Counted from the stretch's first letter, positions 9,455-46,426 are shown. The stretch: 46,426 bases of DNA from Deltaproteobacteria bacterium (GCA_016784945.1 JADHTP010000001.1:1-46426); one strand, 5' to 3'. Made by a program: numbers and translations. The notes: generated by a model not told the origin, from the letters alone.

Positions 9455-9480
9455 AGTGCGTGCGCCTGTGGGCGAAAGGC

Positions 9481-10602: not shown

Positions 10603-10754
10603 GATCCAGACCACCGTTGAAGACCTGGCTAATCCTAGTCTCAATTCTTCGACTCCGTCAACCGACGTGACCGACGGGGTCGATGGCCTGTCGCGGCCCC
10701 GGAGACGGGTCTTCTGTTTCGCGTTATCCGGCATCCCTGCTAATATGGAGCGCC

Positions 10755-32494: not shown

Positions 32495-33451
32495 TCAATT
32501 GCCCCGCGCAGTGGCCGCGAGCCCGCGGTGCCGCCAGTACATGAAGGCGCCATAGGCAAACAGGGGGATACCGATGAGCTGGGAGGTGGAAAGACCCAGG
32601 AGGTCCCCGCGAGGGTCAGCGCGCCAGAATTCGATGACGAACCGCAGGACCGCGTACTGCATGAGGAACGTGAAGAACAGCTGGCCATCGAACCGGGCCC
32701 GGGTCCGGCGCCAGAAGTACAGGTAGAGGAAGATTGCCATACACCCGATGGCCTCCCAGAGCTGGGTGGGATACACCGGCAGCGACTCTGTGGCCGCCCG
32801 ATTGATGAGGCCTTCGGTCAGGTGATGGTCCCAGACCGGGCTTCCGCGGGGAAAGGACAGGCCGCCGTGGGCGGGCGTGGGACAGACTTGCCCCCAGCAG
32901 CAACCGGACAGGAAGCAGCCCATGCGGCCGAAGACCAGGCCGAGAGGTATGGCGTAGCCGGCCAGGTCGCCCACCTTCCAGACGGGCATTCCGAAGCGCC
33001 TGACGAACCAGATGCCCAACGGGATGGCCAGGGCCAGACCACCGTAGTAGACGAGCCCTCCGTACCAGAACTTGAAGGCCCGAAAACAGTCCTTTGCGTG
33101 GCACGTGCCCTTTTCCGGGTGGCAGAGGTCCCCCTTTTCCGCCTCCACGCAGTCCCCGTCGTCCTTGCACCTGACGCCCCCGGGCAGGGCTTCACCCTTG
33201 ACCAGCAGGGGCGCCACGCACAGGTTCTTGTAGTCCTCCCAGTACCCGTCGGCGGCCACGTGCAGCACCCGCGCGCCCACGATGCCCGCGATGATCATCA
33301 CCAATCCCAGGTCCAGGAAGCGGTTCCCGTCCACGCCTCCCCGTCTCAGCACGTCCCGGTGGGCCAGCAACACCACGAAGGTGTATCCCACCATGAGGAA
33401 AGTGAAATAGGCGGGGAACTCGATGAAGCCCAGGTCGAAGGTGGGGAACAA
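32495..33451 (-). CDS. lgt: Prolipoprotein diacylglyceryl transferase with Cys-rich periplasmic insertions
   Basis: Lgt motifs are present: GARVLHV, FWYGGLVYYGG, GRMGCFLSGCCWG (aligning with GRxGNFxNxELxG), YPTQLWEA and SQLIGIPL. The start is uncertain. The track ORF runs to 33571, but the TTG at 33451, 6 nt after GGAGA, gives a typical N-terminus (M)FPTFDLGFIEFPAYF and 318 aa. Confidence 0.8.
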   Translation of the reverse strand: MFPTFDLGFIEFPAYFTFLMVGYTFVVLLAHRDVLRRGGVDGNRFLDLGLVMIIAGIVGARVLHVAADGYWEDYKNLCVAPLLVKGEALPGGVRCKDDGDCVEAEKGDLCHPEKGTCHAKDCFRAFKFWYGGLVYYGGLALAIPLGIWFVRRFGMPVWKVGDLAGYAIPLGLVFGRMGCFLSGCCWGQVCPTPAHGGLSFPRGSPVWDHHLTEGLINRAATESLPVYPTQLWEAIGCMAIFLYLYFWRRTRARFDGQLFFTFLMQYAVLRFVIEFWRADPRGDLLGLSTSQLIGIPLFAYGAFMYWRHRGLAATARGN

Positions 33452-33552
33452 GGGGTTTCTCCAGCAGGTCCGCCGGGGATTGTACCACCGGGGGGAATGG
33501 GTGCGCCTCAATAGGCGTTGCGGATGAGGATTGGATGAATCGAGGTTGAAGG

Positions 33553-33582
33553 ATGAACGACAAACGTCCAACGACGATGGGT
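33553..33582 (-). repeat. Weaker heptanucleotide repeat locus
   Basis: The minus strand reads CCATCGT CGTTGGA CGTTTGT CGTTCAT. It lies in the lgt upstream region, divergent from tolQ. It is more degenerate than the other loci. Confidence 0.4.
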
Positions 33583-33720
33583 GCCCGAACCAGGACAGGA
33601 CGCCGTTTGACGATGGACCTTTGACGTTAAACCGGGTAAATCCAACGACCGACGCTGTCTTATTGGTCCCAGAGCCCCTGTGATATCATCATCGGGCCCT
33701 TCGGTCTGGTGGAGGAAGAT

Positions 33721-34425
33721 ATGCCCCCGGGACCTGAAACCATCTATGGAATCAACGTGTTCGAACAGGTGATCCAGTCCCGGGGAATGGTCCTCGCGGT
33801 GCTGGTCCTTCTCATCGGACTGTCCGTGTTCTCGTGGTTTGTCATCGGCTACAAATGGCTGCTCTTCCGCCGGATCAGGAAGGATACCGAGCGGTTCTTC
33901 GACATCTTCTGGCGCTCCGAGACCCTGGATGCCGTGGAGAGCGCCAGTGAAGGCCTGCCCCGGTGCCCGACAGCCCGCCTCTTCCACGCCGCCTATACCG
34001 AGTTGAACCGGTTCAAGGGCACGGGCAAGGAGGACAGCGACGGGAGCACGCACCTGGGCGGCGGGTTCGAGAACATCGAGCGGGCCCTGAGGCGGGCGGT
34101 TCAGGACGAGATATCCCACCTCGAGCACCTGGTCGGATTCCTGGCGACCACGGGCTCGGCCGCCCCCTTCATCGGGCTCTTCGGCACGGTCTGGGGCATC
34201 ATGAACGCCTTCGCCTACATCCACCCCGATCGGCCCATCCTGGAGACGGTGACACCCCACATCGCGCAGGCCCTGGTGGCCACGGCCATCGGGCTGCTGG
34301 CGGCCATTCCCGCCGTGATGGCGTACAACTATTTCACCGGGCGGATCAGGAACTTCACCGTGGAGATGGACAACTTCTCCATCGATTTCCTGAATATCCT
34401 CAAGCGACACTTCTTCAAGGACTGA
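33721..34425 (+). CDS. tolQ: MotA/TolQ/ExbB-family proton channel, TolQ by context
   Basis: ATG at 33721 directly after GGAGGAAG (the track ORF starts at GTG 33709). Three TM segments are present. Characteristic segments are LATTGSAAPFIGLFGTVWGIMNAF and ALVATAIGLLAAIPAVMAYNYF. Confidence 0.85.
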   Translation: MPPGPETIYGINVFEQVIQSRGMVLAVLVLLIGLSVFSWFVIGYKWLLFRRIRKDTERFFDIFWRSETLDAVESASEGLPRCPTARLFHAAYTELNRFKGTGKEDSDGSTHLGGGFENIERALRRAVQDEISHLEHLVGFLATTGSAAPFIGLFGTVWGIMNAFAYIHPDRPILETVTPHIAQALVATAIGLLAAIPAVMAYNYFTGRIRNFTVEMDNFSIDFLNILKRHFFKD

Positions 34426-34427
34426 GC

Positions 34428-35012
34428 ATGCAGGGGCCCGGAAACAGAGGCGCCATGCTGTCCGAGATCAACGTGACGCCCCTGGTGGACGTCATGCTGG
34501 TCCTGTTGATCATCTTCATGATCTCGTCTTCCATCGAAACACTGCAGGTGCAGCAGGAAAAACAGCGAATCGAGAAGGAATTCGAAATCGACGACATGCC
34601 GGATCAGAAGGTGCCGGTCAACCTTCCCAAGACCAATGCCGAGCCGGTGAACCTGGCCGAGGACAGGAAACTGGTGATGACCATCAACGAGCGGGCCGAG
34701 TTCTTCATCGGGCCCACGAAGATCCTCTCGTGCCTGGACCTGGCGCCCCGTCTGGACAAGGTACTGGGGACACGCCGCTCGGCCTGGGGACCCAACGAGG
34801 ACAAGGCCTTCAAGCTCTGCCTCGATGCCCTGGAAGCCAAACTGTCGAAGAACGCCAAGCTCAAGGCCGACAAGGAGATGTATCTGAGGGCCGACGAAGG
34901 CATTCCCTATGGCATGGTCCTCAAGGTGATGGCCCGGATCCGGGCGTCGGGCGTGGCCAAGTTCGGGCTGGTGGCGGAGCCCGAAGAGGCCCCGAAAGGG
35001 GCGGCGCAGTGA
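34428..35012 (+). CDS. tolR: ExbD/TolR-family protein
   Basis: ATG at 34428, 2 nt after the tolQ stop. MQGPGNRGAMLSEINVTPLVDVMLVLLIIFMI is the canonical ExbD/TolR N-terminus. At 194 aa it is longer than typical. Confidence 0.85.
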   Translation: MQGPGNRGAMLSEINVTPLVDVMLVLLIIFMISSSIETLQVQQEKQRIEKEFEIDDMPDQKVPVNLPKTNAEPVNLAEDRKLVMTINERAEFFIGPTKILSCLDLAPRLDKVLGTRRSAWGPNEDKAFKLCLDALEAKLSKNAKLKADKEMYLRADEGIPYGMVLKVMARIRASGVAKFGLVAEPEEAPKGAAQ

Positions 35013-35905
35013 CCGATGCTCTTCTACAGACCCCCGGCAGGGACTTGGGCGGCGGTTGGGCGCTGTGGTTCGGCGGGACCGTGACCCTGGGCGTTCACGG
35101 GATCATCGTCACGGTGCTGGCCACGGCCACGGGCGCGGCGGACCTGGATGCCGTGACCTTTCCAGTGAGCCGCCGCCTGTGCGACGACATCCGCTGCGCC
35201 GAAAAGGCCCGCACGGACCGTCGACGGGGCCTGGACGAGGAAGCGGTGGACGTGGGAATCATCGAAGCCACGGTGATCCCCCGACTCGGTCTGGCGGAAC
35301 CCAAGGCTCGCAAGCTCCCCAAGCTGATCAAGTACGAACAGCCTGAAAAGATCGAGGAGGCCGTCAACGTCATCAGGGACAATCCCATCGTCAAGAAAAT
35401 CAAGCACAAGGACGTGAAGCCCAAGAAGGCGGAACTGGACCGCCGGCGCAAGAAGAAGTCCCTGGTGGCCATCCTGGGCTCGCCCGAAGACGACGACCCG
35501 CGCAAGCGAGCCACCTCCCTGGACCGAATCATCGGGTCAAAGTCAGGGATCGTCACCGGGGTGGGAACGGACAAGATCGAAGGCAACGTCTATGCCGGCA
35601 AGGTGGCGGGCGCCATCCACCAGCGGTTCACCGTGCCCCCGTTCCTGGGCGAGTCCGAATTGAAGAAACTTCGCATGAGGATCCGCATCACGCGGATGAA
35701 CGAGGGCGGACAGATCGTCAAATACAAGGTCATGAGGAAGTCCCGCACCCGGGCGTTCGACGAGGCGGCCATAAGGGCCATTCGTCAGTTCATGCCCAGT
35801 GAAGGCGGGGTGGCGCACCTGCCGGCCCCCGATGCCAGGACCCTCAAGTACATCAACGCCCGGGGCATGGTGGTGGACCTGGACGGGGCCCTGTTCCGGA
35901 AGTGA
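35009..35905 (+). CDS. TolA/TonB-like energy-transducer protein
   Basis: The GTG at 35009 overlaps the tolR stop (GTGA). There is an N-terminal TM segment WALWFGGTVTLGVHGIIVTVLATA and a charged Lys/Glu/Pro-rich linker. The C-terminal domain YAGKVAGAIHQRFTVPPFL...IRITRMNEGGQIVKYKVMRKSRTRAFDEAAIRAI resembles the TonB_C/TolA fold. Confidence 0.7.
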   Translation: MTDALLQTPGRDLGGGWALWFGGTVTLGVHGIIVTVLATATGAADLDAVTFPVSRRLCDDIRCAEKARTDRRRGLDEEAVDVGIIEATVIPRLGLAEPKARKLPKLIKYEQPEKIEEAVNVIRDNPIVKKIKHKDVKPKKAELDRRRKKKSLVAILGSPEDDDPRKRATSLDRIIGSKSGIVTGVGTDKIEGNVYAGKVAGAIHQRFTVPPFLGESELKKLRMRIRITRMNEGGQIVKYKVMRKSRTRAFDEAAIRAIRQFMPSEGGVAHLPAPDARTLKYINARGMVVDLDGALFRK

Positions 35906-37334
35906 TCGGGGGACTTGGGACATCAACGCAACGTCATCAGTCACGGGCCGAGGGGTCCTGTTCCAGGCCCTGGTGGTGCTCCTGCTCACGGCCCTTGCCC
36001 TAACAGCCATGGCCCGTGGCGGGGACCGCACCAGGCCCGTTCCCGACGACCCGAGATGCGGACGTTTCGGTTATGCCCGGAGCGTTCCCATGCCTCTCAT
36101 TCCCGTCGCCTGGCCCCTGATCCAGGACCTCAGCCGGCACGGAGAACTGGAAGGGGTGACCGAAAGGCTCTCCCGGGCCATCGCCAATGACCTGGGTCTC
36201 TCCGGCGTCTTCCTGATCCGCTCCCGCGAGTCCCGCCCCACGTCATCCATGATCACCTGGAACTCGGCGCTGGCCTTCGACTACCTGGGATGGCGACAGG
36301 CCAGGGCCTGGATGGTGGTGGTGGGCGAGGTCGCACCGAACGGTGATGGCAACCTGCGGGTCCGGCTGGATGGGTACCTGACCGAAGAAGCCGACATCCT
36401 CGGGATCGGAAACGCTGAAAAAGTGCTTTCCCCGGCAAACGTGGAGGACTTCGGTCACCAGTATGTCAACGCTCTGCTCCAGTGCATCACGGGACTGTCG
36501 GGCACCTTTGGCAGCCGGATCACCTATTCCCACCGGCCCCGCGCCGGTGCGGCCAAGGAAATCTTCTTCGTGGAGTTCGGGTCCACCGATCCGGTCCAGG
36601 TGAGCCGGGACGGGTCCGTGGCCATGCTGCCCGCCTGGGCCCCCGGTGGGGGTATCGCCTTCACCGGTTTCCAGGAGGGCAACCCTGACGTGTACCTGGC
36701 CGACTGCCCCGGATGCCCCCAAGGGGGGGTCCGGCAACTGTCCGCCCGACAGGGGATGAACTCGGGCATCGCGTTTTCCCCCAGGGGTGGTCTGGCGGCC
36801 CTCACCATGGCGCCAGACGGCAACCCGGACATCTACCTTATCGACGGGAAGACGGGGGACGCCATGGCGCGCCTGACCACCTCGGGGTCCATCGACACGA
36901 GCCCGGCCTGGTCACCGGACGGCCGGCGGATCGCCTTCGTTTCCGACCGTCGCGGGAGCCCCCAGATCTGGGTCATGAACTCCGATGGCACGGAGCAGCG
37001 GCCACTGCCCCTGTCCGGCAGTTACAACACCAGTCCGGACTGGTCCCCCGACGGCGCGGAGATCGTCTACCAGTGCCGGGTGGGCGGCAGACGCTTTACA
37101 ATAAAGGTCTACAATCTCCTGACCGGCGCGGTGAGAGTCCTCACGAGGGGCGCGAGCAGCGAGGAACCGTCCTGGTCACCGGACGCGCGAATGATCGTGT
37201 ACACGCACCAGGCCCGGGGTCCCAAGGAACTCTGGATGATGACCCGGGACGGAACCGGGGCCCGACCCCTCCTCGACGGCCCCGGGGAGTATTTCACGCC
37301 GGCCTGGGAGCGACCCTTCTCCGGGAACCGCTGA
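35799..37334 (+). CDS. tolB: Tol-Pal system beta-propeller protein TolB (start uncertain)
   Basis: Beta-propeller repeats are present: PAWAPGGGIAFTG, GNPDIYLIDGKTG, SPAWSPDGRRIAFVSDRRGSPQIWVMNSDGT, SPDWSPDGAEIVY and EPSWSPDARMIVY. The signal-like segment is VLFQALVVLLLTALALTAMA. No ATG/GTG/TTG lies in frame between the tolA-like stop (35905) and this segment. The options are the GTG at 35799 or the ATG at 35832 (about 100 nt overlap with the upstream gene), or the GTG at 35973 inside the hydrophobic core. Confidence 0.8.
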   Translation: MKAGWRTCRPPMPGPSSTSTPGAWWWTWTGPCSGSDRGTWDINATSSVTGRGVLFQALVVLLLTALALTAMARGGDRTRPVPDDPRCGRFGYARSVPMPLIPVAWPLIQDLSRHGELEGVTERLSRAIANDLGLSGVFLIRSRESRPTSSMITWNSALAFDYLGWRQARAWMVVVGEVAPNGDGNLRVRLDGYLTEEADILGIGNAEKVLSPANVEDFGHQYVNALLQCITGLSGTFGSRITYSHRPRAGAAKEIFFVEFGSTDPVQVSRDGSVAMLPAWAPGGGIAFTGFQEGNPDVYLADCPGCPQGGVRQLSARQGMNSGIAFSPRGGLAALTMAPDGNPDIYLIDGKTGDAMARLTTSGSIDTSPAWSPDGRRIAFVSDRRGSPQIWVMNSDGTEQRPLPLSGSYNTSPDWSPDGAEIVYQCRVGGRRFTIKVYNLLTGAVRVLTRGASSEEPSWSPDARMIVYTHQARGPKELWMMTRDGTGARPLLDGPGEYFTPAWERPFSGNR

Positions 37335-37346
37335 GGGAGGCCGACG

Positions 37347-38693
37347 GTGCGCCTGAAATGGCCCGATATCCTGAAACACGACGCAACCGGGAAGGCACAG
37401 CCCCTTTGGGTGCGGGCCGTGGTGGTGTCCGTATGGGCCCTGTGCGCCTCCCAGGTTCTGTGGACCGCCCGACGGTTCCTCGTGGAGGACCTCTGGCGAC
37501 CCGATCCCGGGGCCGATATCCTGGTGATGGCCGCGTTGGCCGCGGGATGCGCCCTGGCCCTGGCTTCAAGGAAACGGGCCGCCGCGGAACTGGCCGGTTG
37601 GGCGGCCCTGTCCGAAGTGGTCCTGGTGGACTGGACCCAGGGCGCCCGGCTCTGGTCCCGGGTGCCCGAGGCCGTCGGATGGCTGCTGGCGGCGGTCCTT
37701 CTCCTGCTGGCCGGCAAACGGATTTTCGTCAGAAAGGCCCCCCGGGTGCGGAACACTCTGGGGGACCTGGCAGGGGCATTGCGGGCGACACTCGCCCTCT
37801 TCCTGGTCCTCGATCTCGCCGCCGCCGCGTGGATCCACGGTAACAACCCGCGGGCCATGATCACCACGGAGCCACCCCCGACCATGACCACCGTGCAAGT
37901 GGAAGGCCTGCCCACGGTCGCCACCCTGGGCAGTTCACCGGCCAACTACGAACGGGATTTCCAGAAACCCTTCAGCCTGATCCTGGCCCATCGCTTCCAG
38001 GGCCGTCTCAACTTCGTAAGTTCCGGGGAAGGCGGCGTGAATTCGGACAAGCTGGTGGCCATGGCCCGCCGACTGGTGGACTCGGACCAACGGCCCGATG
38101 GCTTTCTGGTCTACGCCGGGCACGAGGATTTCGACGACTATGCCGGCCTCAAGTTCCTGGTGGACCTGGACCCCGTGGGGCGTTCCGAGGCGACCCGGGC
38201 CGCAGTGGCCTGGGTGCTCCGCCATTCGGCCCTTGTCAGATTGAGCCTCTTCCACCTGTGGATGTGGAACTTCGACTTCTTCGCCGCGCCCGCCGGGGAG
38301 CGGGCCCGGGCCGTATTCCCCCACATGCGGGACAACCTGGAGGCCATACTGGGACTCGCCGCGGACCACGGGATACGGGTTTTCGTGGTCACGCTCCACG
38401 CCGACTGGTCCCTCACGCCCCTGGGGCATCGCGAATACGTGGGACTGTTGAACGACTGGTACCGATCCCTTCTCGCACGGTACCCCCACGTGTCCCTGGT
38501 GGACTTCGAACAGGCCGCCCGGACGCGTTATCCCGACGGGCCGCTGGCCGATTGCGAACCCTTTGAAACCCCACTGCCCGGCAGGGACGGTTGCACCAAC
38601 GCCTTCCACATGAGTTCCGTGGGACACACCCTGATCGCCGACCTCGTGGAACCCGTCCTCGACCATTGGGTGGAGTCCAGGCAGTCGCCATGA
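37347..38693 (+). CDS. Membrane-anchored SGNH/GDSL-hydrolase-like protein
   Basis: GTG at 37347 after GGAGG, 12 nt after the tolB stop. It has about 4 N-terminal TM segments. The soluble domain has SGNH-like blocks: TLGSSPA (block I Ser), SSGEGGVNS (block II Gly), VYAGHEDF (block III) and NAFHMSSVGH (block V His). The blocks are degenerate, so the call is tentative. Confidence 0.4.
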   Translation: MRLKWPDILKHDATGKAQPLWVRAVVVSVWALCASQVLWTARRFLVEDLWRPDPGADILVMAALAAGCALALASRKRAAAELAGWAALSEVVLVDWTQGARLWSRVPEAVGWLLAAVLLLLAGKRIFVRKAPRVRNTLGDLAGALRATLALFLVLDLAAAAWIHGNNPRAMITTEPPPTMTTVQVEGLPTVATLGSSPANYERDFQKPFSLILAHRFQGRLNFVSSGEGGVNSDKLVAMARRLVDSDQRPDGFLVYAGHEDFDDYAGLKFLVDLDPVGRSEATRAAVAWVLRHSALVRLSLFHLWMWNFDFFAAPAGERARAVFPHMRDNLEAILGLAADHGIRVFVVTLHADWSLTPLGHREYVGLLNDWYRSLLARYPHVSLVDFEQAARTRYPDGPLADCEPFETPLPGRDGCTNAFHMSSVGHTLIADLVEPVLDHWVESRQSP

Positions 38694-38759
38694 GAAGGTC
38701 TGTGCCCGGGCTGGGCAATCCGGGTTAAGATGTCCCGGTGATTTTTTTGGGAGGCGGCG

Positions 38760-38921
38760 GTGGGCCGACGGCTCGATCTGGTCAGGGACCTGGGACGCAT
38801 GGTGTGGCGCCGCAAGCTCTGGATCATGGTCCCTTTCCTGTCGTTCCTGCTGTTCGGCATGTTCCTCCTGGTGGTGGTGGAGTCCCCCGCACTCCTCCCC
38901 TTCTTCTATGCCATTTTCTGA
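38760..38921 (+). CDS. 53-aa DUF5989/SxtK-like small membrane protein (below the ORF-track length cutoff)
   Basis: The GTG at 38760 is 5 nt after TGGGAGG, with an in-frame stop upstream at 38739-38741. The translation is (M)GRRLDLVRDLGRMVWRRKLWIMVPFLSFLLFGMFLLVVVESPALLPFFYAIF*. A basic amphipathic N-terminus with W-x-R-R-K-x-W, one TM segment and a C-terminal P-F-x-Y-x-x-F match my recollection of the DUF5989 family. That family is typically encoded beside carbamoyltransferase and SxtJ genes. Confidence 0.6.
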   Translation: MGRRLDLVRDLGRMVWRRKLWIMVPFLSFLLFGMFLLVVVESPALLPFFYAIF

Positions 38922-38934
38922 AGGCAGGTGACCC

Positions 38935-39717
38935 TTGGCGTCGGACGGAACGCTCGACACAGCCGTTGTTCTCTTTTCCGGCGGTCCCCGCTCCACCCTG
39001 GCGGCCATCCGTACGGGCCTGCGCTTTCAACGGGTTCACCTGGTCACCATGACGCACAAGGGGTATTCGGGCTCCACGCACCTGGCTGCCCAGGCCCAGG
39101 GGATCGCCCGCTTCTTTGGCGACCCGGACCGTTTCGTCCACCGGCGAGTCCCCGTGGACCGCCTCGTGAGACTGGTGACCAACGGTCATCGGTGGCGGAA
39201 TCTGAAACGACACGGACTGCTGTCCCTGGCGCCCTGCGGCCTGTGTCGACTGGCGGTCCACTGGCGCGCCCTGGTCTACTGCCTGGACAACGGCATCGGA
39301 CACCTGGCTGACGGCCTGGTTCCCGGGGTGGGCACGCGTCCCGGCGGCTATGGCCCCATCGGCCTTGACCGGCTGCGCGAGGTACACGGGGATTTCGGTG
39401 TCCATTACGAAACGCCCCTTTACGACCTGGGTGTTCAGGCCGAAAAGGAACTGGAAAGACTGCGTTTTACCGGTGCGCCGGGGGAAGGAACCGGGACCGG
39501 CGGCCACCACGGGTTCTGCAAACTGGAGAAACTGGATGCCCTGTTCAGGCGCGCCTGCATCGGCTATCAGCGTCTCGATCGCATGGAAAGCCGGATGACA
39601 GCCGTGGTGGACGACGGTCTGGCCCGCATCCGGGACTGGACCAGGGAATACGCGGAGTCCGGCGCACGGTCCCGACTCGCGGCCTGCCTCGACCAGGGGG
39701 GGCCATGGGCACCATGA
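38935..39717 (+). CDS. PP-loop (adenine nucleotide alpha-hydrolase superfamily) ATP-pyrophosphatase-like protein
   Basis: TTG at 38935 after AAGGCAGG, 260 aa. The N-terminus TAVVLFSGGPRSTLAA resembles the PP-loop SGGxDS, but with Arg in place of Asp. A downstream PCGLCRLAVHWRALVYCLDNGIGHLADG resembles the CxxC...(A/G)xGH segment of TilS/TtcA/QueC-type enzymes. Confidence 0.5.
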   Translation: MASDGTLDTAVVLFSGGPRSTLAAIRTGLRFQRVHLVTMTHKGYSGSTHLAAQAQGIARFFGDPDRFVHRRVPVDRLVRLVTNGHRWRNLKRHGLLSLAPCGLCRLAVHWRALVYCLDNGIGHLADGLVPGVGTRPGGYGPIGLDRLREVHGDFGVHYETPLYDLGVQAEKELERLRFTGAPGEGTGTGGHHGFCKLEKLDALFRRACIGYQRLDRMESRMTAVVDDGLARIRDWTREYAESGARSRLAACLDQGGPWAP

Positions 39718-40043
39718 GGACCGGCGCATACAGGGGGTGGGCTACGGCCGTCTGCCTTGTGGCGGTGATGCTGCCCTTTGGTCCACGGCTCGTCCTGTCC
39801 AGGGTCCTGGGCTTTCTGTCGAATCCATCTTCAGCCCGTTCTTCGCCCCTGTTCCAGCGCCACATGCGGCTGTGGAACCGGGTGGTGCTGGGCTTCGTGT
39901 TCGTTCTGGGCTTCCCCCTGGCGCGGATCTTCTATCCACTCTGGTCCCGATCACGCCTGTCCCCGGGACCGGGCGCCCATAGCTACTGGATCCGGCGCCC
40001 ACCGCCGGAGGAGTTCGAAAAAGGGATCAAGGACCCGTTCTGA
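39705..40043 (+). CDS. SxtJ-like small membrane protein
   Basis: The ATG at 39705 overlaps the PP-loop gene by 13 nt. It is 112 aa with two hydrophobic segments (WATAVCLVAVMLPFG and WNRVVLGFVFVLGFPLARIF). The C-terminal HSYWIRRPP fits my recollection of the SYW motif of the SxtJ family. It sits immediately upstream of the carbamoyltransferase. Confidence 0.5.
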   Translation: MGTMRTGAYRGWATAVCLVAVMLPFGPRLVLSRVLGFLSNPSSARSSPLFQRHMRLWNRVVLGFVFVLGFPLARIFYPLWSRSRLSPGPGAHSYWIRRPPPEEFEKGIKDPF

Positions 40044-40052
40044 GGTGACCGT

Positions 40053-41795
40053 GTGAACGTCCTGGGGCTCTCGTTCATGTACCACGACTCAGCCGCCTGC
40101 CTGCTGAAGGACGGCATCGTGGTGGCCGCGGCCGCAGAGGAACGATTCTCCCGCAAGAAGCACTCCCTGGATTTCCCCACCGGCGCCATCCGGTCGTGCC
40201 TATCCCTGGGCGATGTCCCCGTGGACGCCCTGGATGCCGTGGTGTTCTACGAAAAGCCTCTGCTCAAGTTCGAGCGCATCGTGACCATGAACTCGGGCGC
40301 CTTTCCCCGTGGCTTCGCCCTGTTCGCCGATGCCATGCCCCTGTGGCTCAAATACAAGCTGTTCATCCGAGAGATGATCCGCACCAACCTGGGGTATGGG
40401 GGCGACGTGTTCTTCGCCGACCACCACTATGCCCACGCATCCAGCGCGTTCTTCCCATCGGGCTTCGACGAGGCGGCCGTCCTGACCATGGACGGCGTGG
40501 GCGAGTGGGCCACCATGACCCGGGGACGGGGGGAGGGCAACCGGATCCACCTGACCCACGAACTCCGATACCCCCACAGCCTGGGGCTGCTGTACAGCAC
40601 CGTGACCGCCTTCCTGGGATTCAGGGTGAACAGCGGCGAAGGCAAGGTCATGGGCCTGTCGTCCTACGGGAATCCGACCTTCCGGGACCGACTGCTGGAC
40701 AGGGTGATCGACCTGCGGGACGACGGAAGCTTCCGCCTCAACCTGGACTATTTCTCGTTCCACCGGGACCTGGTGATGTACAGCCCCCGTTTCGTGGACG
40801 AGTTCGGCGAGCCCCGCAAGCCCGAATCGGACATCACGGCCCGGGACGAGGACCTGGCCTGCTCCCTCCAGGACGTGGTCAACACCGCGTGTCTCAATGC
40901 CGCCGCCCACGTGGGTCGTGAAACCGGTTCCCGGCGCCTCTGCATCGCCGGCGGCGTGGGCCTGAACAGCGTGGCCAACGGGCGGATCCTGGAAGAGGGG
41001 GACTTCGACGAGGTCTTCATCCAGCCCGCCTCCGGCGACGACGGCGGGGCCATCGGGAGTGCGCTGTTCTACTATCACCAGGTGCTCGGGAACCCCCGCC
41101 GGTGGCACATGGAACACGCCTTCCTGGGTTCCGCCGACGACCCCGACGAGGTTCAGCGGTTTCTGGATGCCAGGGGAATGCCCTACCGCCGGTTCGAACG
41201 GACAGAGGATCTCGTGGAACGGGCGGCCTCGGACCTGGCCCGAGGACGGATCGTGGGGTGGTGCCGGGGAAGGATGGAGTATGGCCCCCGGGCCCTGGGC
41301 AATCGGTCCATCCTGGCCAGCCCCACCATCGACGGAATGCAGGACGTGATGAACGAGCGGGTCAAGCACCGCGAGTCGTTTCGGCCCTTTGCGCCCGCCG
41401 TGCTGCTGGAACGGGTGGGGGAATTCTTCGACCCGCCCTTCGGAAGCCCATTCATGCTGCTCGTGGCTCGCACACGGCCCGACAAGAAAGACGTCCTGGG
41501 CGCCGTCACCCACGTGGACGGGACGGCGCGCCTCCAGACCGTGGACAAAACACACAATCCCCGTTTCCACGACCTGATCGCACGTTTCGGTGAAACGACC
41601 GGGGTCCCCGTGCTCCTGAACACCTCCTTCAACATCCGCGGGGAACCCATCGTCCGTGACTGCGGCGACGCCCTGACCTGTTTCCTGAACACGGGCATTG
41701 ACTGCCTGGCCCTGGAGGACTGTTACCTCGTCAAGGAAGAGGACCCCGGCGACGGGAAGACCCGGCGACTGCTGCCGCCCCTGGAGTGGGAATGA
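40053..41795 (+). CDS. NodU/CmcH/SxtI-family carbamoyltransferase
   Basis: GTG at 40053 after GAGGTG, 580 aa. (M)NVLGLSFMYHDSAACLLKDGIVVAAAAEERFSRKKH is the hallmark N-terminus. Also present are HHYAHASSAF, LTMDGVGEW, GKVMGLSSYG, GGVGLNSVANG, the C-terminal domain RMEYGPRALGNRSILA and LLNTSFNIRGEPIV. Confidence 0.9.
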   Translation: MNVLGLSFMYHDSAACLLKDGIVVAAAAEERFSRKKHSLDFPTGAIRSCLSLGDVPVDALDAVVFYEKPLLKFERIVTMNSGAFPRGFALFADAMPLWLKYKLFIREMIRTNLGYGGDVFFADHHYAHASSAFFPSGFDEAAVLTMDGVGEWATMTRGRGEGNRIHLTHELRYPHSLGLLYSTVTAFLGFRVNSGEGKVMGLSSYGNPTFRDRLLDRVIDLRDDGSFRLNLDYFSFHRDLVMYSPRFVDEFGEPRKPESDITARDEDLACSLQDVVNTACLNAAAHVGRETGSRRLCIAGGVGLNSVANGRILEEGDFDEVFIQPASGDDGGAIGSALFYYHQVLGNPRRWHMEHAFLGSADDPDEVQRFLDARGMPYRRFERTEDLVERAASDLARGRIVGWCRGRMEYGPRALGNRSILASPTIDGMQDVMNERVKHRESFRPFAPAVLLERVGEFFDPPFGSPFMLLVARTRPDKKDVLGAVTHVDGTARLQTVDKTHNPRFHDLIARFGETTGVPVLLNTSFNIRGEPIVRDCGDALTCFLNTGIDCLALEDCYLVKEEDPGDGKTRRLLPPLEWE

Positions 41796-43132
41796 GGAAG
41801 AAACCGGCCACCGGCGCCTTTGGACAGCAGCACGGAACCCGGCGATCGCGGTCCCTGCTGCGCGCTCTGTCGGGTCTCGAGGCCCCGGAGGTCATGGATC
41901 ACCAGTCCGACTTCCCAGTGGTCCTGAGCAAGGCCACGGGCGCCCGGGTCCAGGACGTGGACGGCAACCGCTATATCGACCTAGGCGGCTTCTTCGGCGT
42001 GGCCGTGGCGGGCCACCGGAACCGGGCCGTGGTGGCGGCCCTGCGTAAACAGGCGGGACGCCTGCTCCACGGCATGGGCGACGTACATCCCACGGACACC
42101 AAGGCCCGCTTCCTGTCCAGACTGTCCCGGTGCCTGCCCGCCTCCGACTATCGAGCGGTGTTGTCCCTCAACGGGTCCGACGCCGTGGAGTGCGCACTCA
42201 AGTTCGCCGCCGCGGCCACGGGCCGCCCCGGGGTCATCGCCTTTGAGGGCGCCTACCACGGCCTCACTGCCGGTGCCCTGGAGGTCACCGCCCACGACAT
42301 GTTCCGGCGACCCTTCGCGCCCACCCTGCAGGGACGCGGGTCCTTCGTGCCCTTCCCCACGGACGAGGGGGAGGCCCGGGCCGACAGGGTGCTGAAGACC
42401 ATCCGGGAAAAGGCCAGGTCGGGGGAAAAGAAGAGTCATCCCATAGGCGCCATCATCGTGGAGCCCATCCAGGGCCGGGGGGGAATCCGCGTCCCGCCTC
42501 CGGGATTCCTGGCCGACCTGTCGGACCTGGCGGGCCGGGAAGGCCTGGTGCTCATCGCGGACGAGATCTACTCCGGCGTGGGGCGGACCGGGACCTTCCT
42601 CGCCGGCGACCACGAGGGCCTGGTCCCCGACGTGGTCTGCCTGGGAAAGTCACTGGGCGGCGGGATGCCCCTGTCGGCCTGCCTGCTGAGGCAGCCCGTG
42701 GCCGAGGCGGTCCAGGGCACGCCCACGGAGGCGGTACATACTTCCACCTTCCTGGGCCATCCCCTGGCCTGCGCCGCGGGACTGGCCGTACTGGGCGAAA
42801 TGGAACGAAGGGACCTCTACACAGCGGCAACCCGGATCGGGACCTCCCTGATGTGGCGGGCCCGGTCCTGGAAGGAGCGCTTCGCCGGGGTGCGGGACGT
42901 ACGGGGCAGGGGCGCCATGGTGGGGGTGGAACTGGCCGACAGGGACGGCGGACCCGGCTCGGACGCCGCCATGGCGGTCTGCGACAGGGCCCTCAACCAG
43001 GGCGTGATCCTGCTCCCCGCCGGCGGGGAAGGGAACGTGCTGACCTTCACCCCTCCCCTGGTGATCACCGGAAAGGATCTGGACAGGGCCCTGGACACGG
43101 TGGAAGAAGGTCTGAAAGAGGTCCTGGACTGA
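41792..43132 (+). CDS. Class-III (omega-type) PLP-dependent aminotransferase
   Basis: The ATG at 41792 overlaps the carbamoyltransferase stop (ATGA). Motifs are GARVQDVDGNRYIDLGGFFGVAVAGHRN, NGSDAVECALKFA, AFEGAYHG, EPIQGRGG and LIADEIYSGVGRTGTFLAGDHEGLVPDVVCLGKSLGGGMPLSA (the Schiff-base Lys is in LGKSLGGG). Confidence 0.88.
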   Translation: MRKKPATGAFGQQHGTRRSRSLLRALSGLEAPEVMDHQSDFPVVLSKATGARVQDVDGNRYIDLGGFFGVAVAGHRNRAVVAALRKQAGRLLHGMGDVHPTDTKARFLSRLSRCLPASDYRAVLSLNGSDAVECALKFAAAATGRPGVIAFEGAYHGLTAGALEVTAHDMFRRPFAPTLQGRGSFVPFPTDEGEARADRVLKTIREKARSGEKKSHPIGAIIVEPIQGRGGIRVPPPGFLADLSDLAGREGLVLIADEIYSGVGRTGTFLAGDHEGLVPDVVCLGKSLGGGMPLSACLLRQPVAEAVQGTPTEAVHTSTFLGHPLACAAGLAVLGEMERRDLYTAATRIGTSLMWRARSWKERFAGVRDVRGRGAMVGVELADRDGGPGSDAAMAVCDRALNQGVILLPAGGEGNVLTFTPPLVITGKDLDRALDTVEEGLKEVLD

Positions 43133-43144
43133 CGGCGGGCGCCA

Positions 43145-44182
43145 ATGATCGATCCAACACTGGTGAATCGGATACGCGAGTTCATCGGGTCGGCACGGGA
43201 CCCGGATGACGGGGCCTTCGTGACCCTGTGCCGTGCCGTGGCCCGTGCCCAGGGCCGCCTTGGCGCCGGGTCCGGTCTCGAAGCCATCGAGCCGGTCCCC
43301 GAAGGGGCCTTCAAGCTGTCAGATGTGGCCCACTTCCCCAGGTCCCGGGCCCAGGCCACTTTTCGGACGTCGGGCACCACCACGGGACGGCCCGGCCTTC
43401 ACCTGGTGCGGGACATGGACCTCTACCGCCGTTCTGCCCTGGCGGGATTCGAGCGCTACCTCCTGTATCCCCCCCGGCCCGGCCGGTTCGTCAGCCTCAT
43501 TCCCCCGGCCCCACAACGGCCCGGCTCCTCCCTGTCCCACATGGTGTCCATGGTGATGGAGGCCTTTGCCGGTGAGCAGGCCACCTTCGCGAGGAAAGGC
43601 AACGCACTGGCTCTGACACCCCTGATGGCCGCGGTCCGGGAGGCGGTGGATTCCCGTGAACCACTGGTGCTCCTGGGAACAAGCCTGGATTTACTTACCC
43701 TGTTCGAGGCTCTGGAACATTCGAACACGGCAAACGTGGCCCTCCCACGGGGCAGCCGGGTCATGCACACCGGGGGTGACAAGGCCAGCGGGCGGGCCAT
43801 CACACGGGAGAAAATCTGGCAGGGTCTTGACCGTTATTTCCAGATCCCACCGGAGGACGTGGTGGAAGAGTTCGGCATGACCGAACTTTTGTCCCAGGCC
43901 TACGATGCGCCCCGCGTGGTCCCCGGACAGCGACGACTGGTGCCGGTCCCTTGGATGCGCACCCGCGTGCTGGATCCCACAACCTTCACCGAGGTGGATT
44001 CGGGCAGCCGCGGCCTGCTGTGCCACTACGACCTGGCCAACTGCCACACAGCGGTGGCCGTGCTCACCAGCGACCTGGGGCTGCGGATCAACGAAGGCTT
44101 CAGTCACATCCACCGGGTGCCCGGGTCCACGCCCAGGGGCTGCTCACACGAGGCCGCTCGAGGGGTTCGTACCCATGTCTGA
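43145..44182 (+). CDS. LuxE-like acyl-protein synthetase (adenylate-forming, PaaK/LuxE clade)
   Basis: ATG at 43145, 345 aa. The TSGTTG-type motif is FRTSGTTTGRPGLHLVRDMDLY. Also present are GGDKASGR and EEFGMTELLSQAY. Length and motif order fit the LuxE family as I remember it. Its end overlaps the next gene by 8 nt. Confidence 0.6.
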   Translation: MIDPTLVNRIREFIGSARDPDDGAFVTLCRAVARAQGRLGAGSGLEAIEPVPEGAFKLSDVAHFPRSRAQATFRTSGTTTGRPGLHLVRDMDLYRRSALAGFERYLLYPPRPGRFVSLIPPAPQRPGSSLSHMVSMVMEAFAGEQATFARKGNALALTPLMAAVREAVDSREPLVLLGTSLDLLTLFEALEHSNTANVALPRGSRVMHTGGDKASGRAITREKIWQGLDRYFQIPPEDVVEEFGMTELLSQAYDAPRVVPGQRRLVPVPWMRTRVLDPTTFTEVDSGSRGLLCHYDLANCHTAVAVLTSDLGLRINEGFSHIHRVPGSTPRGCSHEAARGVRTHV

Positions 44183-45374
44183 CGTGCCACGGCCCGAACC
44201 GCTGCCTCCCCTCTCCGAGGAGGAAATCGCAGGCAGGCTCTTCGCCCTGCGGGAACGCTGGCGCAACCCCGGAAAGGAAGCCGGCCAAAAGGGCATGGCC
44301 ACCCTGTCACGCCAGACCGGATTCCCCCCTGCGCACGTTCACGAAGCCCTGAAGAGGGCCTTTGCGCCCTTCACTCAACGCTCCATCCGTCGCCTCGTCC
44401 GCCTTGGCAGGGGACCTCGCGCCGGCTCACCGTGGCTCCTGGCCATCCTGGCGGGCCGGATCCCCGCCGTGGCTGTCAACGCCCTGTTCTGGTCCCTGGC
44501 CGCCCGGGTGCCCCTGGCCGTGAAATCCCCGGGCGCCCTGGACGCCTTCACGGCCCTGCTGGTCCGGTCCCTGGCCCGCATGGGGGGATCTCTGGGCCCC
44601 TGCGTCACCCACCTGACATTCCCTTCCGGCACCGGTCCCATGGCACGGCTGGTGGAGTCGGCGCCCCTGTGCCTGGCCTACGGCAGCGACCACACATTCC
44701 GCGCCGTGACGGAGGCTCGCCGGGGGCGTCCCACGCTGGGAGGTGGGCACCGCGAGTCCTTCGTTGTCGTGTTCCGGGAGGCCCTGGAACGGGACGGGGT
44801 GTCCCACCTCGCCCGCGCCATCGCCCGGGACAGCGCCGTCTATGACCAGGACGGCTGCCTTTCACCCCAGGCGGTGCTGGTGGAGGAAGGGGGCGGGACG
44901 AGCCCGAGGGAACTGGCCCGACGAATTCACGACGAGCTGGTCGGAATGGCCAGGCCCCTGCCACCGTCGATACCCCCGCTGGAGGAGGCCGCTCGGCTCC
45001 GGATCTTTGCCGAGGAGTGCCGGTACACGGCGCGGGCTTCGGGTGGGCGGGTCTTTCCCGAAAGAGGCGCACCGATCCCCCTGGTGGCGGTGCTCCCGGG
45101 CCAGCCCTACCGGACGGGACCGGGTCATCGCGTCCTCCAGGTACTGCCCTTTTGCGACGAGCCCGATCCCGCCCGCCTTCTTCCGTCGATGTCGGGCCAT
45201 GTTCAAGGGGTGGCAGTGGCCGGCCCGAGGGCTCGCCTGGAATCTCTGTTCGAGGCCGATCCCGGCTACCGGGCCGGATACGTCTGTGCCCCGGGCCGGC
45301 TGCAGCGTCCCCCGGCCGTGTGGGCCGAGAACGGCATCATCATCACAAAGGAACTGGCCCGCCTGGCTCGCTGA
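44175..45374 (+). CDS. LuxC-like acyl-CoA (acyl-protein) reductase
   Basis: ORF 43905..45374 trimmed to the ATG at 44175 (MSDVPRPEPLPPLSEEEIAGRL...), 399 aa. LAGRIPAVAVNALFWSLAARVPLAVKSP resembles the LuxC G-N-[IV]-P...K-x-[SP] segment. AVYDQDGCLSPQAVLVEEGG supplies a candidate catalytic Cys in a Q-x-x-C-x-S-P context. The pairing with the LuxE-like gene supports the call. Confidence 0.6.
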   Translation: MSDVPRPEPLPPLSEEEIAGRLFALRERWRNPGKEAGQKGMATLSRQTGFPPAHVHEALKRAFAPFTQRSIRRLVRLGRGPRAGSPWLLAILAGRIPAVAVNALFWSLAARVPLAVKSPGALDAFTALLVRSLARMGGSLGPCVTHLTFPSGTGPMARLVESAPLCLAYGSDHTFRAVTEARRGRPTLGGGHRESFVVVFREALERDGVSHLARAIARDSAVYDQDGCLSPQAVLVEEGGGTSPRELARRIHDELVGMARPLPPSIPPLEEAARLRIFAEECRYTARASGGRVFPERGAPIPLVAVLPGQPYRTGPGHRVLQVLPFCDEPDPARLLPSMSGHVQGVAVAGPRARLESLFEADPGYRAGYVCAPGRLQRPPAVWAENGIIITKELARLAR

Positions 45375-45777
45375 CCGGCCCGAGGACACCATCCAGAACC
45401 ATCGGCGAATTCCCCGAAGCGTCGTCCAGATCAATGGACACCATCTCATCGTGGAACCGCAAGCTCACCGACCATCGGCTTATCAGACCCAGTTCATCGA
45501 TCTCGATCCGGAGTTCGCCGGGCGTTTCCCATCGCCCCCGCGCCCGGGCCAGGGCGATGCCCACCAGTGTCCCGGTGATGCTCTTGGTGACCGATGCCAC
45601 GTCGTGCAGGTCATCGGGACCAAAGGGGTGAAAGGCCGCATCCAGGTCCACGGTTCCTTGGCGAACCACCAGGACGCCATGAACCGGCAGGCCCTCGTCC
45701 ATGACGGTCTCCAGGAACCGGGCCAGCCGGACGGGATCCACGCCCAGGGCTTCGGGGGTGGAACGAGGCCATTCCAC
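45343..45777 (-). pseudogene. Truncated serine hydrolase / beta-lactamase-family remnant
   Basis: The GTG at 45777 opens EWPRSTPEALGVDPVRLARFLETVMDEGLPVHGVLVVRQGTVDLDAAFHPFGPDDLHDVASVTKSITGTLVGIALAR. This is the typical N-terminal third of a class-C beta-lactamase/PBP-like esterase, including the SxxK motif (SVTK). Recognisable similarity stops after about 80 residues. The ORF ends at 144 aa inside the 3' end of the LuxC-like gene, against an expected length above 350 aa. Confidence 0.5.
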
Positions 45778-45952
45778 GTCGGGCCAACTCTGGATCGCGG
45801 GCCAGGGTCCCTTCAGGGTTCCACCGTCGCGCAGGCACTCAGAACAAGAAGAATGGTCAGCGGGGCCTTGAAAACGATTCGCGACTCAGACATTCAGTTC
45901 AACCCAAGTCGGGGTTGTTCAGGATGATTCGTTGCGAGACACCGGACGGACC

Positions 45953-46426
45953 CTATCCACTCCAGGGGTAGAGGCCGTTGGAGATCTCGATCTGGTATGA
46001 CTCGCAGATGGCGGGCTTGGTCTTGTCCCGCGAGATCTTGATGTAGTACTTCGCCGAGTTGTTCGAACAGGAATTGACGCCCGGCGCCGCCTCTCCGGGA
46101 CAGGATCCACACTCCTGGGGATCGCCCGTGGTGGCGATGCAGTGGTTGTAATCCGGGGGTGGCCCGCAACTGTTGGAGGCCGTTGAGCACCCGCACTCGC
46201 CCTTGCCGCCGGCGTAGAAGTTGGTCGCCCACTCGGAGATGTTGCCTTCCTTGCAGATGTTGTTCGTGTCGGCGCAGGACCCCCGGTACACGTCCAGCAC
46301 GAAACTGTTGCCCGGGTTCTGGGTGAACACGACCTTCATGTTGTAGAGGTCGCAGGCGTTCGGCTCGTTCTTCCAGGTGGGGTCCGAGGCGTCCACTACG
46401 TACCAGTCATCGTCGTCGTTGGGCAC
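45953..46426 (-). CDS. C-terminal part of a secreted Cys-rich protein with a PPC-like (pre-peptidase C-terminal) domain; 5'-truncated by the window edge
   Basis: The ORF runs off the window. DDDDWYVVDASD...FVLDVYRGSC...AKYYIKISRDKTKPAICESYQIEISNG resembles the D-x-D-W-Y ... Y-Y-[IV]-x-[IV] ... Y-x-[IL]-x-[IV] jelly-roll pattern. A Cys-rich insertion is present (GECGCSTASNSCGPPPDYNHCIATTGDPQECGSCPGE). Confidence 0.4.
   Translation of the reverse strand: MPNDDDDWYVVDASDPTWKNEPNACDLYNMKVVFTQNPGNSFVLDVYRGSCADTNNICKEGNISEWATNFYAGGKGECGCSTASNSCGPPPDYNHCIATTGDPQECGSCPGEAAPGVNSCSNNSAKYYIKISRDKTKPAICESYQIEISNGLYPWSG

Follow-up and report, generated by a model that had tools for sequence, protein, structure and literature searches.

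An ancestral aminotransferase-LuxE-LuxC trio and a rare carbamoyltransferase cassette form two separately inherited modules behind tolQRAB

A 46,426-nucleotide (nt) stretch of DNA from a Deltaproteobacteria bacterium (GCA_016784945.1 JADHTP010000001.1:1-46426), referred to here as the window, was analyzed for the gene run that follows tolB. The open reading frame (ORF) listing and the sequence place eight plus-strand genes, g1 to g8, at 37347-45374. Pfam searches show that the genes immediately before g1, in the same orientation, are tolQ, tolR, a TonB_2/TolA-like gene and tolB, in agreement with the tol adjacency proposed in an initial annotation of the sequence. That annotation described the eight genes as one co-conserved cluster. 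Comparison with related loci shows instead that they are two separately inherited modules. Module A (g6-g8) is an aminotransferase-LuxE-LuxC trio that is the ancestral partner of tolB, and module B (g1-g5) is a rare cassette with a carbamoyltransferase that was inserted ahead of it. The features of the run are:

tolQ, 33721..34425, plus strand: MotA/TolQ/ExbB channel (Pfam MotA_ExbB, E 2e-32), the first gene of the same-strand run, with its start taken from the public gene call
tolR, 34428..35012, plus strand: ExbD/TolR protein (Pfam ExbD, E 5e-20), from the public gene call
tolA-like, 35009..35905, plus strand: TonB_2 C-terminal domain (Pfam, E 3e-6) and one N-terminal transmembrane (TM) helix by hydropathy
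tolB, 36090..37334, plus strand: TolB_N (E 2e-6) and PD40 beta-propeller (E 1e-27), both Pfam
g1, 37347..38693, plus strand: 448 amino acids (aa), membrane-anchored SGNH/GDSL-superfamily protein
g2, 38760..38921, plus strand: 53 aa, DUF5989 (SxtK-type) single-pass membrane peptide with a basic N-terminus
g3, 38935..39717, plus strand: 260 aa, PP-loop ATP-pyrophosphatase-fold protein, closest to YcfA and QueC
g4, 39705..40043, plus strand: 112 aa, membrane protein with two TM helices, divergent and shortened SxtJ-like
g5, 40053..41795, plus strand: 580 aa, NodU/CmcH/TobZ-family carbamoyltransferase, cytoplasmic
g6, 41792..43132, plus strand: 446 aa, class-III pyridoxal phosphate (PLP) enzyme of the GabT/ArgD type
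g7, 43145..44182, plus strand: 345 aa, LuxE-like adenylating acyl-protein synthetase
g8, 44175..45374, plus strand: 399 aa, LuxC-like acyl-thioester reductase, aldehyde dehydrogenase-like

Starting at the tolB stop (37334), neighboring genes are separated by 12, 66, 13, 9 and 12 nt or overlap by 13, 4 (ATGA) and 8 nt, exactly as first annotated. An independent gene caller reported the same eight products on the public contig, a 77.6-kb ENA contig that includes the window. The GC content at third codon positions is 0.76-0.87 compared to 0.35-0.56 at position 2 in all eight frames, which is a coding-type pattern. The identical arrangement was found in five samples or assemblies (loci L001-L005) and is therefore not an assembly chimera. 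The genes are preceded by Shine-Dalgarno-like sequences, and at some junctions a stop codon overlaps the next start. A consensus scan of 33000-46426 found no sigma-70-like promoter, and the 8 terminator-like sites in this interval, compared to a shuffle mean of 8.5, all lie outside the intergenic gaps of the run. These null results are compatible with co-transcription, which is plausible, and are not proof of it. The 66-nt spacer between g1 and g2 (38694-38759) contains a run of seven T before the Shine-Dalgarno sequence and is lineage-specific, the relatives having 8-11 nt; its predicted folding is no better than that of shuffled sequences (z = 0.87).

In a homologue survey with one genome per species, 458 relatives carried a LuxC-like gene, and the best 80 loci were searched by tblastn for the cassette genes. 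None of g1-g5 lies within 10 kb of the LuxC-like gene in these best 80 of 458 species-representative loci, a result that gives no support to a single co-conserved cluster. The closest different lineage (L011/L012), 54-87% identical across the proteins, shares the flanks of the window, with radical-SAM, RNase II, lgt and tolQRAB on one side and MopE, PP2C and UvrA on the other. Its aminotransferase-LuxE-LuxC genes start 8 nt after tolB, and g1-g5 are absent. The trio follows tolQRA(B), with its gene order kept, in 11 of the 16 Myxococcota-type metagenome-assembled genome (MAG) loci that hold enough upstream sequence to be informative. It comes directly after tolB in L011, L029, L030, L031 and L032. 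A 1.7-kb PMT_2 (TMEM260-type) GT-C glycosyltransferase gene lies between tolB and the aminotransferase in L021 and L023, a 3.3-kb pair of MurG-like GT28-HEAT and WecA/MraY-like GT4 genes occupies this position in L018 (4382-7589) and L020, and the trio follows tolA with no tolB match in L027 and L034. The tolB-aminotransferase interval is a variable slot, empty or filled by glycosyltransferases in the relatives and holding g1-g5 in the window. The cassette is bounded precisely, at the nucleotide level, by the tolB stop codon and Shine-Dalgarno region before it and by the aminotransferase start after it, and the window aminotransferase has gained five extra N-terminal residues. The cassette genes show no foreign base composition.

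The cassette was found with g1-g5 in the same order on about ten other contigs (L006, L007, L015, L016, L017, L103-L106). The flanks there are unrelated and include a Na/Ca exchanger with RluA, MTHFR, ribosomal proteins and OTCase, and no tol, aminotransferase, LuxE or LuxC genes lie nearby. The proposed linkage to tol is supported for g6-g8 and not for g1-g5. The trio is also found alone: in L053, from another phylum, it lies between def-fmt and grpE-dnaK-dnaJ, and it stands among housekeeping genes in several phyla. The neighborhood survey detected full adjacency only in the window species and in L108, a sister lineage about 80-90% identical in which g3-g6 are visible; elsewhere the modules are apart. 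In L108, g3-g4-g5 are followed by an overlapping aminotransferase start, with the same g5 stop/g6 start overlap as in the window. The ratios of nonsynonymous to synonymous substitution rates (dN/dS) between the window and L108 are 0.24 for g3, 0.21 for g4, 0.15 for g5 and 0.14 for the g6 N-terminus. The contigs L016 and L022 belong to one MAG (JBBIPO01), with the cassette and the trio on different contigs. Neither module matches a characterized pathway. A literature search on DUF5989/SxtK/SxtJ and on LuxE, LuxC and aminotransferase combinations returned no paper assigning either set to a pathway, which bears out the first impression that the gene set was not a recognized one. A 67-kb metagenome contig (L107, 9254-10620) carries a decayed cassette, with partial g1 and DUF5989 genes, a g3 cut to its first 100 residues and a carbamoyltransferase reduced to a short fragment.

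All eight initial family assignments are supported at the superfamily level, and five of the proteins pass the Pfam thresholds. In module A, g6 matches Pfam Aminotran_3 at 310 bits (E 2e-92), with the PLP lysine present and the GK motif conserved. Its nearest solved relatives are GabT (PDB, E 4e-68), PuuE, acetylornithine/acetyl-lysine aminotransferase and fold-type-I racemases. The LuxE-like g7 scores 37.1 bits with Pfam LuxE (cut-off 24.9), matches the PDB LuxE structure 7xc6_E (E 4e-8), conserves SGTT and YGMTE motifs and carries an invariant cysteine, in RGCS, some 12 residues before the C-terminus. The LuxC-like g8 scores 83.8 bits with Pfam LuxC (PF05893; cut-off 21, E 1.5e-23), and its cysteine motif YDQxGCLSP is invariant in 23 homologues. 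None of the proteins reached an NCBIfam equivalog cut-off, the LuxE and LuxC equivalogs scoring 24 bits against 550 and 16 against 750, so that g7 and g8 belong to the LuxE/LuxC families without being orthologues of the lux-operon proteins. The luxA, luxB and luxD genes were not found in the window.

The functional pairing of LuxE and LuxC is supported by a Phycisphaerae MAG locus (L079, 8576-11146) in which LuxE-like and LuxC-like domains are fused in one polypeptide. The LuxE-LuxC genes are followed by a short-chain dehydrogenase/reductase gene on Lactiplantibacillus and Pantoea plasmids. With either this enzyme or a PLP enzyme as third partner, the LuxE-LuxC pair behaves as a portable acid-to-aldehyde unit. 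The Tam and Tab pathways are established examples of the conversion of an acid to an amine through the aldehyde.

The aminotransferase of the trio has a distinguishing residue. The Arg of the GNV(I/L)R..PPL motif is present in all five best PDB matches of g6, and g6 has Thr at this position of GNVxRxxPPL (GNVLTFTPPL at 43019-43048). From what is established for GabT, we take this Arg to bind the alpha-carboxylate of glutamate or 2-oxoglutarate. A residue other than Arg is found in every aminotransferase directly ahead of LuxE-LuxC in Myxococcota, Verrucomicrobiota, Elusimicrobia, Armatimonadota and L053 (L011-L034, L041, L053, L057, L081, L083, L084, L090). The Arg is kept in the unrelated distal aminotransferases of Binatia and Nitrospirota loci. 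As judged from this motif, the Arg-less trio aminotransferases are a distinct subfamily.

The substrate of module A could be a small acid, with LuxE/LuxC replacing a pair of the ArgB/ArgC, ProB/ProA or Ask/Asd type and the resulting semialdehyde being aminated to a diamino or omega-amino acid. GabT, PuuE and the acetylornithine/acetyl-lysine, putrescine and diaminobutyrate (DABA) aminotransferases are the closest relatives of g6, and the housekeeping surroundings of the trio in several phyla fit such a role. Characterized LuxE/LuxC proteins act on fatty acids, however, and the absence from g6 of the alpha-carboxylate Arg of its five best PDB matches argues against a standard 2-oxoglutarate-dependent enzyme. 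A small-acid route is a real but unlikely alternative.

In module B, the carbamoyltransferase g5 gives the strongest family match, with Carbam_trans_N at 256.6 bits (cut-off 24, E 6e-76) and Carbam_trans_C at 230.7 bits (cut-off 27, E 1e-68) in Pfam. The motifs HHYAH, DGVGE and SGDDG were read in its sequence as the metal-binding His/Asp motifs of the Kae1-like domain. We take them to be equivalent to the corresponding residues of the TobZ structure. The protein is about 50% identical to carbamoyltransferases encoded beside annotated SxtJ and DUF5989 genes on planctomycete plasmids and is similarly related to the DUF5989-carbamoyltransferase pair of Sinorhizobium meliloti pSymB. The g2 peptide passes Pfam PF19451 (DUF5989) marginally, at 28.0 bits against a cut-off of 27; its orthologues in L015-L017 score higher. 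Hydropathy predicts one TM helix at residues 22-40 of g2.

The SGNH, PP-loop and SxtJ-like assignments stand on family-level profile or structure evidence and not on the Pfam scores of the window proteins themselves. No Pfam or NCBIfam match was obtained for g4, and the SxtJ model PF19588 failed to match g4 and its orthologues at a threshold as loose as E <= 10, whereas genuine SxtJ proteins match it at E 4e-6 to 7e-17. A ten-sequence g4 profile aligned by hhalign with four PF19588 SxtJ proteins gave a probability of 90.9% (E 1e-6) over 44 C-terminal columns that span the last TM helix and a GRxxL..(S/T)YW..P tail. The reversed profile and 30 column-shuffled controls gave at most 2.5%, and g4 is therefore a shortened, divergent SxtJ-like protein. 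Its gene lies directly upstream of carbamoyltransferase g5.

The g1 protein has about four TM helices within residues 1-155 by hydropathy, and the positive-inside rule places its soluble domain outside the cytoplasm, so that the catalytic-type domain is probably periplasmic. The window protein is under the Pfam threshold for Lipase_GDSL (E 0.006-0.011; 17.3 bits against a cut-off of 23.6). At the family level, 12 of 21 members match Lipase_GDSL_2, the best at 3.9e-13, and the family profile matches SGNH esterases exclusively in the PDB. The GSS of block I is near-invariant and the block V His is invariant. The soluble-domain family is small, with 22 representatives among 1.84 billion. AlphaFold2 run on the g1 domain as a single sequence gave a predicted local distance difference test (pLDDT) score of 52.7 and a model with no Foldseek match below E 0.4.

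The g3 protein has no Pfam match of its own, and its relatives reach QueC and DUF7411 in Pfam. The g3 family profile searched against the PDB matched YcfA (9kq6) at E 1e-7 and QueC at 2e-3. An AlphaFold2 model of moderate quality (pLDDT 69.5) has YcfA as its top Foldseek match (E 5e-8), followed by QueC, TrmU, TtuA, ArgG (argininosuccinate synthetase), TilS and LarE, to 5e-4, and this model shows that g3 is predicted to have a Rossmann-like PP-loop fold. A Qat-like defense reading of the QueC-like g3 was rejected, PADLOC having matched none of the eight proteins to a defense system. The most distant g3 relative (P0004) lies at L010 1662-4523, two genes upstream of an Aminotran_5-family gene of the cysteine desulfurase/C-S lyase type. 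This pair recalls YcfA-YcfC, and there is no carbamoyltransferase at this locus.

Related gene sets recur outside the window lineage. Three planctomycete plasmids carry a carbamoyltransferase, an "SxtJ family membrane protein" and a "DUF5989 family protein," as named by the Prokaryotic Genome Annotation Pipeline (PGAP), in exosortase/exopolysaccharide (EPS) loci that also hold a tyrosine autokinase, EpsI and a sugar O-acetyltransferase. An SxtJ-DUF5989-SGNH set is present on a Planktothrix plasmid and an SxtJ-carbamoyltransferase-SGNH set on a Rhodobacteraceae plasmid, and L007 also has an SGNH protein at its head. These SxtJ-associated SGNH partners are about 400 aa long, and all have an N-terminal TM helix. 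The saxitoxin cluster lists sxtI, sxtJ, sxtK and sxtL, the last a GDSL lipase, and J/K/L-like genes occur together in the suomilide cluster. The recurrence of SxtJ, DUF5989, SGNH and carbamoyltransferase genes, together with the g3 match, therefore identifies the cassette as a divergent SxtI/J/K/L-type set with an added YcfA-like PP-loop protein.

The reading considered probable is that two independently inherited modules lie behind tolQRAB, tightly packed and probably co-transcribed, each with its own chemistry and with an envelope glycan as the target of module B. The gene content, the families and folds, the mosaic origin and the loss of catalytic residues from g3 are shown by the data, whereas the reactions of the individual enzymes, a glycan as target, tethering by g2 and g4 and a common transcript are inferred. 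In module A, LuxE-like g7 would adenylate a carboxylic acid and hold the thioester on its C-terminal cysteine, LuxC-like g8 would reduce this thioester to an aldehyde, and the class-III PLP enzyme g6 would turn the aldehyde into a primary amine. Module B is a rare mobile cassette that was inserted directly after the tolB stop codon and ahead of the aminotransferase start. Its soluble carbamoyltransferase g5 would form a carbamoyl-adenylate and transfer the carbamoyl group while anchored at the inner membrane by SxtJ-like g4 and DUF5989 g2, and the periplasm-facing SGNH domain of g1 would trim or relocate an ester or carbamate. In other carriers g3 probably adenylates a carbonyl for sulfur or nitrogen substitution, a function that appears disabled in the window lineage. 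The target of module B is most likely a lipid-linked or surface envelope glycan on the basis of the EPS context of the nearest annotated relatives, the glycosyltransferases found in the same slot and the lipopolysaccharide (LPS) precedent of WapO, which carbamoylates the LPS core heptose.

Several observations weigh against this assignment of functions. In the window and L108, g3 reads SGGPRS (38977-38994, residues 15-20) where all five other members have SGGSDS, and RPGGYG (39331-39351, residues 133-139) where the other members have YPEQNE or PAQ. These substitutions place Arg at YcfA Asp19 and Gly-Gly at Glu134-Gln135. YcfA makes the antimetabolite 6-thioguanine; its Asp19 is essential, the D19A change abolishing activity, while Glu134 serves as general base and Gln135 positions ATP and the substrate (PMC12494993). 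With all three catalytic positions lost, the alignment shows that g3 is predicted to be catalytically disabled in the window lineage. The ORF is intact in both the window lineage and L108, and its dN/dS of 0.24 corresponds to purifying selection; g3 has therefore been kept, probably with an altered or non-catalytic function. Neither these residue losses in g3 nor the recurrent partnership of SGNH proteins with SxtJ and DUF5989 figured in the initial annotation. In g1, block III is GH(Q/E)D (GHED in the window) compared to GxND, and the window has Asn in place of the block V Asp (NAFH..GH). Given these g1 deviations and the g3 losses, the cassette may work differently or only partly in this lineage. 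The g1 family has no detectable likeness beyond block I to the SxtJ-associated SGNH proteins of L007, Planktothrix and Rhodobacteraceae, and g1 was not called an SxtL orthologue because the hhalign probability for these pairs was an insignificant 1-4%. The Arg-less g6 may not be a standard transaminase, and since the alpha-carboxylate-binding Arg is absent, its donor or reaction type may be unusual. The proposed glycan target is drawn from gene neighborhoods in other lineages. The only MAG checkable for both modules (L016 and L022) carries both, so module B may depend functionally on module A.

A closer connection is proposed if the eight genes are one pathway, in which LuxE, LuxC and the aminotransferase would make a fatty amine or amino-lipid precursor that is carbamoylated to a urea or carbamate in a Tol-associated envelope lipid. 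An amine is a chemically sensible carbamoyl acceptor, the junctions are tight with the g5-g6 ATGA overlap kept in L108, and the MAG of L016 and L022 has both modules. The distribution of the genes makes this improbable: the modules are adjacent in the window lineage only, the 80 LuxC-type loci have no g1-g5 nearby, and about ten g1-g5 loci have neither trio nor tol in their surroundings. Syntenic relatives lack g1-g5 at the site, the trio stands alone at the def-fmt/grpE-dnaK-dnaJ locus of another phylum, and carbamoyltransferase-SxtJ-DUF5989 sets occur without LuxE/LuxC in planctomycetes, Sinorhizobium and cyanobacteria.

Module B could alternatively be a secondary-metabolite tailoring set that acts on a soluble alkaloid or peptide, in the style of saxitoxin or suomilide. 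The names SxtI/J/K/L come from the saxitoxin cluster, J/K/L-like genes are in the suomilide cluster, a sterol-desaturase (SxtD-like) gene neighbors the Planktothrix plasmid locus, and YcfA, an antimetabolite enzyme, is the closest solved relative of g3. The g1-g5 loci have no polyketide synthase, nonribosomal peptide synthetase or amidinotransferase beside them, however, and their flanks are housekeeping genes. Three of the five cassette proteins are membrane proteins, the nearest annotated carbamoyltransferase-SxtJ-DUF5989 sets are in EPS/exosortase loci, and glycosyltransferases occupy the same slot in relatives. A soluble target is considered quite unlikely.

It is equally doubtful that the cassette is a partly inactivated passenger, inserted by chance at a permissive intergenic site and unrelated to tol or the trio: the lost PP-loop Asp (equivalent to the inactivating YcfA D19A) and Glu134/Gln135 equivalents of g3, the decayed remnant in L107 and the departures of g1 blocks III and V from the family consensus would fit this view, but the ORFs are intact in two lineages about 80-90% identical (g3-g6 visible in L108) with dN/dS of 0.15-0.24, and the genes have Shine-Dalgarno-like sequences and some start/stop overlaps. 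A functional juxtaposition, given a similarly small chance, would have the trio place an amine on an envelope precursor that the cassette N- or O-carbamoylates at the membrane, with an intact YcfA-like enzyme converting the product to a thiocarbamate/thiourea or guanidino-type group. If true, it would be a new envelope decoration co-expressed with Tol, and SxtJ, SxtK and SxtL would be a general membrane scaffold for carbamoyltransferases.

The reading as two modules was compared with the closest known systems. The cassette resembles the sxtI-J-K-L segment in having a NodU/CmcH carbamoyltransferase, a DUF5989 (SxtK) peptide, an SxtJ-type membrane protein and a GDSL/SGNH protein. It differs in that g4 is not recognized by the Pfam SxtJ model and resembles SxtJ in the C-terminal half alone, g1 is anchored by several helices and shows no detectable orthology to the other SGNH partners, the gene order is different, a PP-loop gene is inserted, and toxin core genes are absent. 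YcfA of the YcfA-YcfC 6-thioguanine system (PDB 9kq6, PMC12494993) is the best profile and fold match of g3, and the g3 relatives keep SGGxDS and PEQ, which correspond to YcfA Asp19, Glu134 and Gln135. YcfA and g3 are just 17-21% identical, four cysteines are conserved in the g3 family, and the cassette lacks a YcfC-type C-S lyase (no Aminotran_5-type gene). The two-domain architecture of g5 is that of the O-carbamoyltransferases WapO (PA5005), NodU/NolO and TobZ; unlike g5, these have no described partners of the SxtJ, DUF5989, SGNH or PP-loop kinds. The AT3-SGNH (OafA-type), PatA/PatB and AlgI/J/X systems also combine a membrane component with an extracytoplasmic SGNH protein acting on a glycan, a likeness of architecture only, and neither an AT3 nor an MBOAT domain occurs in the cassette. 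In S. meliloti, an AT3-SGNH gene is located 3 kb from the carbamoyltransferase-DUF5989 set.

The LuxC-LuxE fatty acid reductase (PDB 7xc6) shares with module A the near-C-terminal cysteine, the catalytic-cysteine motif and the adjacent, overlapping genes. Module A differs from it in lacking luxD, luxAB and luxG, in having g7 and g8 proteins that are 30-80 residues shorter and in its PLP enzyme partner. TamA/TamH and TabQ/TabE/TabA, which form tambjamine alkylamine tails, and the ArgB/C/D-type triads follow the same logic of carboxylate activation, aldehyde formation and transamination. Activation in module A is by LuxE rather than by an acyl carrier protein or adenylation domain, no natural-product cluster surrounds the trio, and g6 lacks the canonical carboxylate-binding Arg.

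To our knowledge, SxtJ and SxtK have had no defined role ever since the first description of the saxitoxin cluster. The carbamoyltransferase, SxtJ, DUF5989 and membrane-anchored SGNH proteins form a recurrent set far outside toxin clusters, in planctomycete EPS loci, alphaproteobacterial and cyanobacterial plasmids and Myxococcota-type MAGs, and this recurrence points to a general membrane-associated carbamoylation system. Two elements are new compared with the literature searched: the Arg-less aminotransferase-LuxE-LuxC trio as a conserved downstream partner of tolQRAB in one clade, and the five-gene cassette, in which the carbamoylation set is joined by a YcfA-like PP-loop enzyme. Every protein is a member of a known family and the organism is uncultured; the value of the locus is as a well-delimited experimental target rather than as a surprise.

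Features around the run were also recorded. The position after tolB, classically that of pal/cpoB in the tol-pal cluster, is held by the aminotransferase-LuxE-LuxC trio in this clade; pal/cpoB (ybgF) was not found downstream of tolB before the strand switch at 45.3 kb, several window ORFs at 19.5-25.7 kb being unscanned. A minus-strand ORF of 144 aa (45343-45777) overlaps the 3' end of g8 by 32 nt and matches the first ~70 of 329 positions of the Beta-lactamase (serine hydrolase) Pfam model (E 1e-6). It is absent from this position in L011 and may be a gene fragment. Elsewhere in the window are a PMT_2-type glycosyltransferase (216-1691, plus strand), recF-dnaN (8351-10734, minus strand) and a radical-SAM protein with Radical_SAM_N2 and DUF2344 domains (27870-30449, minus strand), the last of which is syntenic with the tol region in L011 and L024.

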